From the NCBI GenBank assembly GCA_934272785.1, contig CAKQSE010000001.1, positions 41,212 to 105,211 of the forward strand: a DNA stretch of 64,000 bases, read 5' to 3'. Below the pieces are notes generated by a model. It was given only the letters and a program-made list of their open reading frames with translations, did no database searches and was not told where the DNA came from. Source of the DNA: an uncultured Alphaproteobacteria bacterium (GTDB lineage: Bacteria > Pseudomonadota > Alphaproteobacteria > Rs-D84). Below are positions 5,206 to 6,033 of the stretch, one piece after another. Position 1 is the first letter of the stretch. Each line of letters opens with the position of its first letter. The translations under genes were made by a program, and so were the position numbers.

Positions 5206-6033
5206 ATGCAGACAATACAACAGTTTTTAGATTATTATGTTGCCCGTGGCCTGTTACAGTCCCACGGCAGTCCTGTGTGGTTTCAATATTCGCCGACGGC
5301 CACATTGCCAAATTATAAATGGAAGATGCACGTTGCCGCCACAGATGTCGCGGATTGGGAACGTGTGGCGCGCGCGATTGTGCCGTGGCTGATTCAAAAT
5401 AAAATAACATTTAAAACGGTCCAGCCAACTGATTACGCGACCGATATGATTTTATCTGCGTCAAATGCCCAATATGCCAAGGCGTTCACAATATATCCCC
5501 GCAATGCCACAGAATTTGAACATGTTGCGCGCGGACTGGATGCGTTGATGCGTCGCCCAGAATTACAAAAACTGGTCGCGTTTGCGCCCGAACATAATAT
5601 GGCGTTTGAACGTTCGTTGGGTGCCAGTGGTCGCCTGTTTTATCGCCTGGGGAATACCCCTGATGGCAAGTATATGTCGGCACGTGGTGCGGCGACAATC
5701 AACCCGCAAAATCCATTTAACCCGTTTAATGAACCAGACCCATTTGCAAATATGTTTGATGATGGTGCGCGTGCGCAATTTAATGCGGGACGTGTGCGTG
5801 TGGAACAGATTTGGCACGAATTGCAACATTTGGCCGCGCGTCGTAATGTCGCAAACAGTTCTGATGGCACGGGCCGTTCGGTCTATCTGGTGCCGCTGGA
5901 CGAAAATAACCGCGCCCGGATTCAAGAATTGCTGGCGGCGTCTGGGGTAAAATATGACGAACATTTCAGCCGTGCATACGGCATGCGTGTGTTTCGTTTC
6001 ATGCCGTCTGAATTCGCAACCCTGACCAGATGA
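5206..6033 (+). CDS. hypothetical protein; candidate OspF/SpvC/HopAI1-like phosphothreonine lyase (tentative)
   Basis: The ORF is clear and GC looks host-like. Motif series K-M-H-V (cf. K-F-H-I), N-K-I-T-F-K (cf. D-K-W-K), A-K-A-F-T-I-Y (cf. G-A-Q-F-T-L-Y) and F-Y-R-L…D-G (cf. S-Y-R-N-E…R-D-G) appears in the same order and roughly the same spacing as the catalytic K104/H106/K136/Y158/R213-R220 region of SpvC/OspF as I remember it. Confidence 0.45.
   Translation: MQTIQQFLDYYVARGLLQSHGSPVWFQYSPTATLPNYKWKMHVAATDVADWERVARAIVPWLIQNKITFKTVQPTDYATDMILSASNAQYAKAFTIYPRNATEFEHVARGLDALMRRPELQKLVAFAPEHNMAFERSLGASGRLFYRLGNTPDGKYMSARGAATINPQNPFNPFNEPDPFANMFDDGARAQFNAGRVRVEQIWHELQHLAARRNVANSSDGTGRSVYLVPLDENNRARIQELLAASGVKYDEHFSRAYGMRVFRFMPSEFATLTR

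Follow-up and report, generated by a model that had tools for sequence, protein, structure and literature searches.

A stand-alone protein with a phosphothreonine-lyase fold and a conserved catalytic residue set encoded by an uncultured gut alphaproteobacterium

In a paper of 2026 the phosphothreonine lyases are still termed a small family of virulence factors, and all known members of the OspF/SpvC family make use of type III secretion (PMC13151050). The only other relatives of these enzymes that have been recognised are domains of lanthipeptide synthetases, such as the one in ThurKC, and the LanY proteins; heterodimers of an APH kinase and a lyase are an established dehydratase design (PMC9486802). 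For ThurKC and SpvC the key residues are needed, as judged by mutagenesis, and their roles have been summarised (PMC10604976, PMC9486802). Here we describe a gene in a stretch of 64,000 nucleotides from an uncultured alphaproteobacterium (contig CAKQSE010000001.1, positions 41,212 to 105,211), which as a whole is called the window below. The encoded protein of 275 amino acids (aa) has an intact catalytic set of this kind in a different architecture, and it comes from a human-gut commensal-type bacterium. The gene, called the lyase gene in the following, is predicted to encode a free-standing, catalytically competent phospho-Ser/Thr beta-elimination lyase, an assignment whose chances we judge to be about even. 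Established parts of this picture are the homology and fold of the protein, its conserved catalytic residues, the purifying selection on its gene and a setting without synthetase or peptide-cluster genes; lyase activity, the kind of substrate and the location of the target are what we infer. The protein belongs to a rare, unnamed and undescribed clade of a known enzyme kind.

When the protein was compared with Pfam, a single match was obtained, to RamC_N (PF25816; expectation value E=2.7e-12, 47 bits vs a cut-off of 27), which in class III/IV lanthipeptide synthetases forms the N-terminal lyase domain. The NCBIfam models for LanKC and LanL matched only within the N-terminal ~100 residues (E=2e-11 and 2.5e-10), with scores of 43 and 39 bits vs full-length cut-offs of 575 and 650. 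In the PDB, class III lanthionine synthetases (E=7e-7) were the sole chains that phmmer reached by sequence, and a profile of 26 family domains (A2) matched residues 41-194 of ThurKC (8sao, E=1.1e-12), the lyase domain of which comprises residues 29-213 by its authors' definition. A preliminary description of the locus had placed the protein, as a candidate, in the OspF/SpvC/HopAI1 family. This placement did not hold. PF03536 (VRP3) gave no match in the 275-aa protein in Pfam, even at E<=10, the SpvC, OspF and VirA chains in the PDB were reached neither by phmmer nor by the family profile, and hhalign of A2 against SpvC gave only E=0.27, aligning GKAFTIY with GAQFTLY158 and FYR with SYR213. 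Membership of PF03536 is rejected on the basis of these four sequence comparisons.

The phosphothreonine-lyase fold, which had been proposed in the same description, is in turn borne out by the AlphaFold (AF2) model. With four sequences as input the N-terminal domain was modelled poorly, while with 51 homologues we obtained a predicted local distance difference test score (pLDDT) of 92 and a predicted template modelling score (pTM) of 0.72. Foldseek against the PDB gave ThurKC as the best match (2e-9), followed by CuvL, PneKC and SalKC. Next came SpvC (2z8m, E=8.8e-4, probability 1.0, target-normalised template modelling score 0.46; 2q8y, 9.4e-4), then VirA (3bo6) and OspF (3i0u), and after these chain B of the LxmKY dehydratase (9dk2, E=1e-2). 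Indeed, the top 25 PDB matches consist of LanKC lyase domains, SpvC, VirA, OspF and this LxmKY chain. From these data we conclude that the resemblance to phosphothreonine lyases is homology and not chance. As far as sequence can tell, the family is of the RamC_N type, forming a separate clade of non-synthetase proteins, and not of the OspF type. Among viral structures (BFVD), the best fold match to the model is a Fadolivirus protein of 674 aa annotated as a glutamine amidotransferase (A0A7D3V7D7; 169 aligned columns, probability 1.0, E=1.5e-3), which may contain a lyase-fold domain.

The catalytic residues were mapped via the alignment to ThurKC and the published equivalences between ThurKC and SpvC (K65=K104, H67=H106, K94=K136, D152=D201, R163=R213 and R191=R220; PMC10604976), so that correspondence is by alignment and not by position in three dimensions. 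K117 of ThurKC is a functional stand-in for SpvC R148 (PMC10604976). By this procedure E135 of the window protein corresponds to ThurKC D152 and SpvC D201, and R147 to ThurKC R163 and SpvC R213; the other assignments are listed in Table 1. Conservation is close to complete in 148 representative domains, where K40 is found in 145, H42 in 146, K70 in 147, Y97 in 145, an acidic residue (D/E135) in 144 and R147 in 145. Q89 and K92 occur in all 148, and R143 in 117. Q89, invariant in the clade, is not present in ThurKC, and R143 is an extra, clade-specific arginine. The four motifs pointed out in the preliminary description (WKMH, NKITFK, QYAKAFTIYP and GRLFYR...PDG) are all present in the translation, and the residues it regarded as catalytic are indeed homologues of SpvC K104, H106, K136, Y158 and R213, near-invariant in the 148 relatives. 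Two details had to be corrected: the SpvC motif quoted there as DKWKITD actually reads DKWKVTD, and homology of the 'DG' after the Y-R motif, taken as shared, is unsupported.

If the paradigm of SpvC/OspF and of the LanKC lyase domains applies, K70, with the help of Y97, would take the alpha-proton of phosphothreonine or phosphoserine, and K40 would stabilise the enolate. The leaving phosphate, held by K92, R147 and probably R143, would be protonated by H42 with E135. The predicted product is dehydrobutyrine or dehydroalanine, and the phosphorylation site would therefore be irreversibly destroyed, as it is by the phosphothreonine lyases of pathogens.

The coding evidence is consistent with a functional gene. 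An open reading frame (ORF) on the plus strand runs from a TTG at 5170 to 6033 and has 287 codons, and its first ATG, at 5206, leaves a protein of 275 aa. In all relatives the protein begins with the methionine equivalent to this ATG (MQTIQQF...), and 5206-6033 are therefore the right gene coordinates; the preliminary description had given this extent correctly, together with a length of 287 aa that belongs to the upstream TTG. Between the lyase gene and a relative of 97% identity there are 24 synonymous and 8 non-synonymous differences. The resulting ratio of non-synonymous to synonymous substitution rates (dN/dS) of 0.09 points to purifying selection, the signature of a working enzyme. Additionally, the identical 275-aa protein is encoded on 7 metagenome contigs. 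The gene is monocistronic and lies between two tRNA genes, with a separate promoter-like site at 5099-5128. Behind it, positions 6047-6116 of the window are 93-94% identical to the relatives, in which this sequence stands directly beside tRNA-Gln.

We then looked at the clade as a whole. An exhaustive hidden Markov model search of 1.84 billion representative proteins yielded only 236 matches at E<=1e-3. Among the best 150 clade proteins, 48 are 1,000-6,458 aa long, with the lyase domain usually in the C-terminal third. The members of up to 1,000 aa (n=103) contain RamC_N in 97 cases and FHA in 29, and none of the 103 has a Pkinase or LanC domain. The closest relatives come from uncultured Alphaproteobacteria genomes of gut metagenomes, and at least one other source bacterium of the clade was deposited as a non-photosynthetic cyanobacterium. 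All source names retrieved for clade members read 'hypothetical protein' or 'FHA domain-containing protein', and full-text literature searches gave no paper describing proteins of such architecture. A distant member, P0142, has a sub-threshold match to PF03536 (22.1 bits vs a cut-off of 25, E=1.2e-4) and, at the level of sequence, forms a bridge between the clade and the effector family. An origin from plasmids or phages was considered and dismissed; the tblastn matches on plasmids were limited to LanKC-like genes of Lactococcus, and phages gave none.

In this clade the lyase domain is thus linked straight to FHA domains, which read phosphothreonine, and is built into giant multi-module proteins. 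The giants have N-terminal EF-hand and LysM domains and a lyase domain in one or two copies, and FHA is often present as well. One of them contains an EDR1/CTR1-type peptidase-like domain and another an AvrB_AvrC domain beside the lyase domain. Seven metagenome giants of 1,686-2,822 aa (P0012, P0013, P0015, P0022, P0024, P0027 and P0046) all have one or two lyase domains, with EF-hand in most, LysM in several and FHA in some, and they look like multi-effector proteins. The gene for P0024, a giant with lyase and FHA domains, comes immediately after fliE, fliF, an unnamed gene, fliH and flhA (L024, 3585-15061). A context of flagellar export for the giants was not retained, as these flagellar type III export genes are a single case that is not repeated for P0022 (L025).

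In the window protein the lyase domain is followed by a C-terminal region, which in other clade members is the position of FHA. Residues 186-275 are modelled as alpha-beta-beta-alpha-beta-beta-alpha. No Pfam family was found for the C-terminal module, where only BRCT came up at E=0.12. One or two copies of its 62-aa core are present in the nearest relatives (P0004-P0007), the core is also found in P0142, and in P0055 it stands twice behind a DnaJ J-domain. The module consensus is S-A-D-N...S-x-Y-F-x-P...L..L....G-I-K-Y-D-x-H-F-S...V-x-R-V. A database search with the module alignment gave two gene remnants only. With Foldseek, the module repeatedly produced weak matches to LAGLIDADG homing-endonuclease and intein regions of the same topology (including 2dch), and tandem copies would mimic single-chain LAGLIDADG proteins. 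A relationship by sequence found no support, with hhalign against I-CreI at E=0.32, so that the topology and the weak fold matches are what remains of this idea. A vestigial kinase N-lobe, an idea that came from long Foldseek alignments to LanKC, was also rejected, the hhalign comparison with a Lactococcus LanKC-like protein being not significant. The module probably serves in targeting or partner binding and would then play the part of FHA in many relatives. As the substrate of the enzyme, a phosphorylated protein is most likely, more so than the precursor of a lanthipeptide. The association with FHA, a phosphothreonine reader, argues for phosphothreonine-bearing protein substrates, while the absence of synthetase domains and precursor genes disfavours lanthipeptide biosynthesis.

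Table 1. Positions of the lyase gene, its catalytic motifs and further features of the window.
Feature	Position	Strand	Remarks
APH-family kinase-fold gene	4255..5007	+	Operon with MerR downstream of gyrA; PF01636, E=1.7e-11
tRNA-Glu(CUC)	5038-5112	-	Just upstream of the lyase gene
Conserved putative leader/promoter region, TTGATTTTTCGTATAAATGGTGTTACAG...	5170..5205	+	Kept in L017 despite different upstream genes there
Lyase-fold coding sequence	5206..6033	+	275 aa; ATG to TGA; from ORF list and homologue starts
N-terminal alpha/beta lyase domain (OspF/SpvC and LanKC-lyase fold)	5206..5760	+	Residues 1 to ~185
K40-M-H42 (WKMH, 5320-5331)	5323..5331	+	= SpvC K104/H106, ThurKC K65/H67; predicted enolate-stabilising Lys and general acid
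K70 in ITFKT	5413..5415	+	= SpvC K136, ThurKC K94; predicted general base; aligned with ThurKC 'EFKHL'
Signature Q89-Y-A-K92-A-F-T-I-Y97-P (QYAKAFTIYP)	5470..5499	+	K92 = ThurKC K117; Y97 = SpvC Y158
E135...G-x-S-G-R143-L-F-Y-R147, ERSLGASGRLFYR, then LGNTPDG	5608..5646	+	From translation and alignment
C-terminal region: long helix (residues 186-209) and ~62-aa module (209-270)	5761..6030	+	AF2 model confident
Bidirectional stem-loop terminator after the stop codon	6082..6102		Terminator scan; conserved in relatives; last conserved sequence before the island
Low-GC (guanine-cytosine) insertion, 13.25 kb	6117-19369		At the 3' end of tRNA-Gln (19371-19444, -)
ComEC/Rec2 competence channel homologue (Competence and DUF4131)	29690-31660	-	Core genome
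VirB8, VirB9 (C-terminal SPOR domain) and unusually long 800-aa VirB10	41750-46432	-	Isolated three-gene cluster

The genomic setting shows that the lyase gene is core and syntenic. In five relatives the gene order is rpmH, gyrA, MerR, APH-like kinase, tRNA-Glu (minus strand), lyase, tRNA-Gln (minus strand), MarR and RND efflux, and the tRNA-Glu neighbour noted earlier is present in the window as well. A functional link between the lyase and this tRNA, as in the glutamyl-tRNA-dependent class I dehydratases, was rejected; those belong to a different enzyme family, and the tRNA is merely neighbouring, on the opposite strand. The homology of the window to its relatives breaks off at 6116, after the terminator, and is taken up again at 19370, where tRNA-Gln has its 3' end; the low-GC sequence in between is therefore an insertion. 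L019 has it as well, and L001, L003, L005, L006 and L007 lack it. The insertion resembles a mobile defence island, with genes for an HKD and Snf2 helicase (PADLOC C3a139, E=1.5e-113), DUF4391, a Schlafen AlbA_2/Fic-like-C protein, an N6/N4 DNA methylase, a ResIII and RE_endonuc protein, DUF2924 and a large serine recombinase. The preliminary description had seen a typical effector location at the island boundary. This view had to be given up, along with the idea of the lyase gene as island cargo: gene and terminator are conserved and syntenic in the five relatives without the island, and the gene lies outside it. An anti-phage defence protein was likewise rejected, PADLOC giving no match for the lyase or the kinase.

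What lies between tRNA-Glu and the lyase gene varies. This slot holds a Metallophos gene and a gene for a 301-aa protein of no assigned function in L001 (5845-7925), two tandem Metallophos (calcineurin-like phosphoesterase) genes in L017 (493-2580), where the lyase is 97% identical, and no gene in the window. The lyase has 59% and 49% identity to relatives and the APH-like kinase 57% and 56%, vs 96% for gyrA, 91% and 82% for MerR and 71-89% for the efflux genes; the two genes diverge far faster than those flanking them. In L015 (8001-8264) an 87-aa ORF, P0229, is a remnant of a gene for lyase plus module. It has the neighbourhood (Na/Ca exchanger, OLD-family TOPRIM nuclease) in which L011 carries an intact gene for 302 aa, and it indicates gene decay in one lineage.

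Where would such an enzyme act? We incline to an effector or toxin directed at the phospho-signalling of another cell, because AvrB-like and peptidase-like fusions occur in the giants, the gene diverges fast, its slot is variable and in one lineage no more than a remnant of it is left. Several points weigh against this reading and against lyase activity in general. Only three type IV secretion genes are present in the window, 36 kb from the lyase gene, and neither a signal peptide nor another secretion signal can be recognised in the lyase protein, whose mildly basic C-terminus is not diagnostic of a type IV translocation signal. The relatives of ~313 aa made of lyase and FHA lie amid ordinary metabolic or housekeeping genes, which fits a cytoplasmic, endogenous role equally. 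Finally, an equivalent of SpvC R220/ThurKC R191 is not identifiable. In the phosphate pocket, as given by the alignment, R147 stands for R213 and K92 takes the role of R148, and the position of R220/R191 is occupied by P177. The extra R143 may compensate for this loss.

The missing arginine could also mean that the protein is a phosphopeptide-binding pseudoenzyme or performs a different chemistry on the same scaffold, and the invariant Q89 and the near-invariant R143, which have no counterpart in characterised lyases, would fit this as well. We hold such a non-lyase function to be highly improbable, as it would hardly account for the near-total conservation of general base, general acid and enolate-stabilising lysine in 148 domains that are otherwise divergent. 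More weight must be given to an endogenous regulator, that is an irreversible eraser of Ser/Thr phosphorylation in its own cell, for example on substrates of Hanks-type kinases, for which the module or FHA would choose the phosphoprotein. The core synteny of the window gene, its lack of a secretion signal and the minimal lyase and FHA proteins among metabolic genes support such a role, and so do the frequency of FHA fusions (29/103) and the lack of a defence-system match in PADLOC. It is opposed by the fast divergence of the gene, the varying slot content, the lineage in which only a remnant is left and the AvrB-like and peptidase-like effector modules beside the domain in giants; moreover, we know of no bacterial precedent for the irreversible destruction of a cell's own phosphosites. 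On balance we regard the endogenous role as unlikely, even if it is a serious competitor to the effector or toxin that we favour.

In summary, the clade could constitute a third, undescribed branch of the OspF/LanKC-lyase superfamily, consisting of protein 'eliminylases', free-standing or modular and equipped with their own FHA reader or with the new module, by which uncultured gut Alphaproteobacteria and other uncultured bacteria would irreversibly erase protein Ser/Thr phosphorylation. We advance this proposal tentatively and with slightly more doubt than belief. If it is true, phosphothreonine lyases occur beyond a few type III effectors made by pathogens and the synthetases of peptide antibiotics. 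An active clade would mean a wider distribution of irreversible anti-phosphorylation chemistry and new enzymes for the conversion of phosphosites into dehydroamino acids. One would then also have to ask whose phosphoproteins the enzymes attack in the gut: those of the host, of a protist, of a competitor or of the cell itself.

How, then, does the protein compare with the known systems? With OspF, SpvC, VirA and HopAI1 (2Z8M, 2Q8Y, 3BO6, 3I0U) it shares the alpha/beta fold, the equivalents of K104, H106, K136, Y158, D201 and R213, and the format of a small stand-alone protein. It differs in that no significant sequence match is obtained, that R148 is replaced by a lysine elsewhere in the window protein, and that R220 has no identified equivalent. 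The ~100-residue N-terminal region of SpvC that docks mitogen-activated protein kinases (MAPK) is absent, with K40 only 39 residues from the start vs K104 in SpvC. The MAPK docking (D) motif of OspF and SpvC is basic-hydrophobic and N-terminal to the catalytic core, and the N-terminus of the window protein, MQTIQQFLDYYVARGLLQSHG, is without such a motif. The OspF/SpvC enzymes are delivered by type III secretion and carry out their elimination on pT-x-pY of MAPK. There are no type III genes among the window ORFs scanned, and the source bacterium, an uncultured alphaproteobacterium of gut commensal type, is not known as a pathogen. The preliminary description had pictured a classical effector of the OspF/SpvC type, translocated into host cells by a VirB type IV system and inactivating MAPK there. 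In favour of this, fold and catalytic residues are the same, the organism is gut-associated, and the VirB8, VirB9 and VirB10 homologues on which the idea was built do exist in the genome. Their neighbours are housekeeping genes, namely YidC, signal peptidase II, tRNA-Trp and ORFs of 1389 and 1379 aa, which we take to be rpoB and rpoC, and no VirB4, VirB11 or VirD4 is adjacent to the cluster. The type IV genes of the window are thus incomplete, and nothing links them to the lyase gene. Together with the failure to match PF03536, the lack of a docking region, the position of the gene off the island and the use of type III secretion by the known members (PMC13151050), this makes the classical effector decidedly improbable.

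A second comparison concerns the class V systems with LanK and LanY (CaoK/CaoY, LxmK/LxmY 9DK2, TvaC/TvaD), in which, as in the window, separate genes for an APH-fold kinase and a lyase-fold protein stand side by side. The nearest relative of the APH-like kinase is APH(2''), in a weak match. The kinase keeps the GD..N and IDWED catalytic motifs, with only ~40 residues beyond the metal-binding Asp, and seems to be missing the usual aminoglycoside-binding C-terminal subdomain. Its gene adjoins the lyase gene in the window and in all five relatives; L001, L003 and L019 are among the genomes in which the two are neighbours, with inserted genes in L001. Both genes diverge similarly fast, and the kinase is a possible partner of the lyase. 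One may thus think of a split dehydratase, in which the kinase would phosphorylate a peptide or protein and the lyase would eliminate the phosphate; the established APH-kinase and lyase heterodimers (PMC9486802) and the weak fold match to the LxmKY chain would agree with this. The lyase folds are distantly related. The two window genes belong to different transcription units, being separated by a terminator (5012-5028) and the opposite-strand tRNA-Glu, and between kinase and lyase L001 has four genes inserted and L017 at least two Metallophos genes. The pairing is limited to the one small clade of the window gene, and distant members of the wider clade have unrelated neighbourhoods without kinase, cyclase or peptide-cluster genes. 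No precursor-peptide or cyclase context was found in nine gene neighbourhoods examined, no tailoring gene accompanies the window pair, and the intergenic spaces at the lyase locus are too short for a precursor gene. In LanY (HopA1-like, PF17914) an arginine replaces the lysine of K-x-H and the histidine is absent, while the window lyase keeps K-x-H, has no HopA1 match in Pfam and is of the RamC_N type instead. We therefore consider a split dehydratase improbable.

The closest known proteins by both sequence and fold are the lyase domains of LanKC and LanL (ThurKC 8SAO, CuvL 8CAV, PneKC, SalKC). Common to both sides are the W-K-x-H, F-K and G-K-x-x-T-I-Y-P motifs, the acidic residue and F-Y-R, and K92 takes the place of SpvC R148 just as ThurKC K117 does. 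A fragment of a lanthipeptide synthetase or of a peptide cluster is nevertheless rejected, since kinase and cyclase domains and a precursor are lacking and the gene, complete and stand-alone, is under purifying selection. Unlike LanKC and LanL, the window protein is free-standing, with RamC_N as its sole Pfam domain, and has no kinase, LanC cyclase or precursor peptide with it. Q89, R143 and the C-terminal NPxNPxNP...DPF stretch are particular to its clade, and where fusions occur in this clade, they are usually with FHA domains or within giant multi-domain proteins and not with synthetases.

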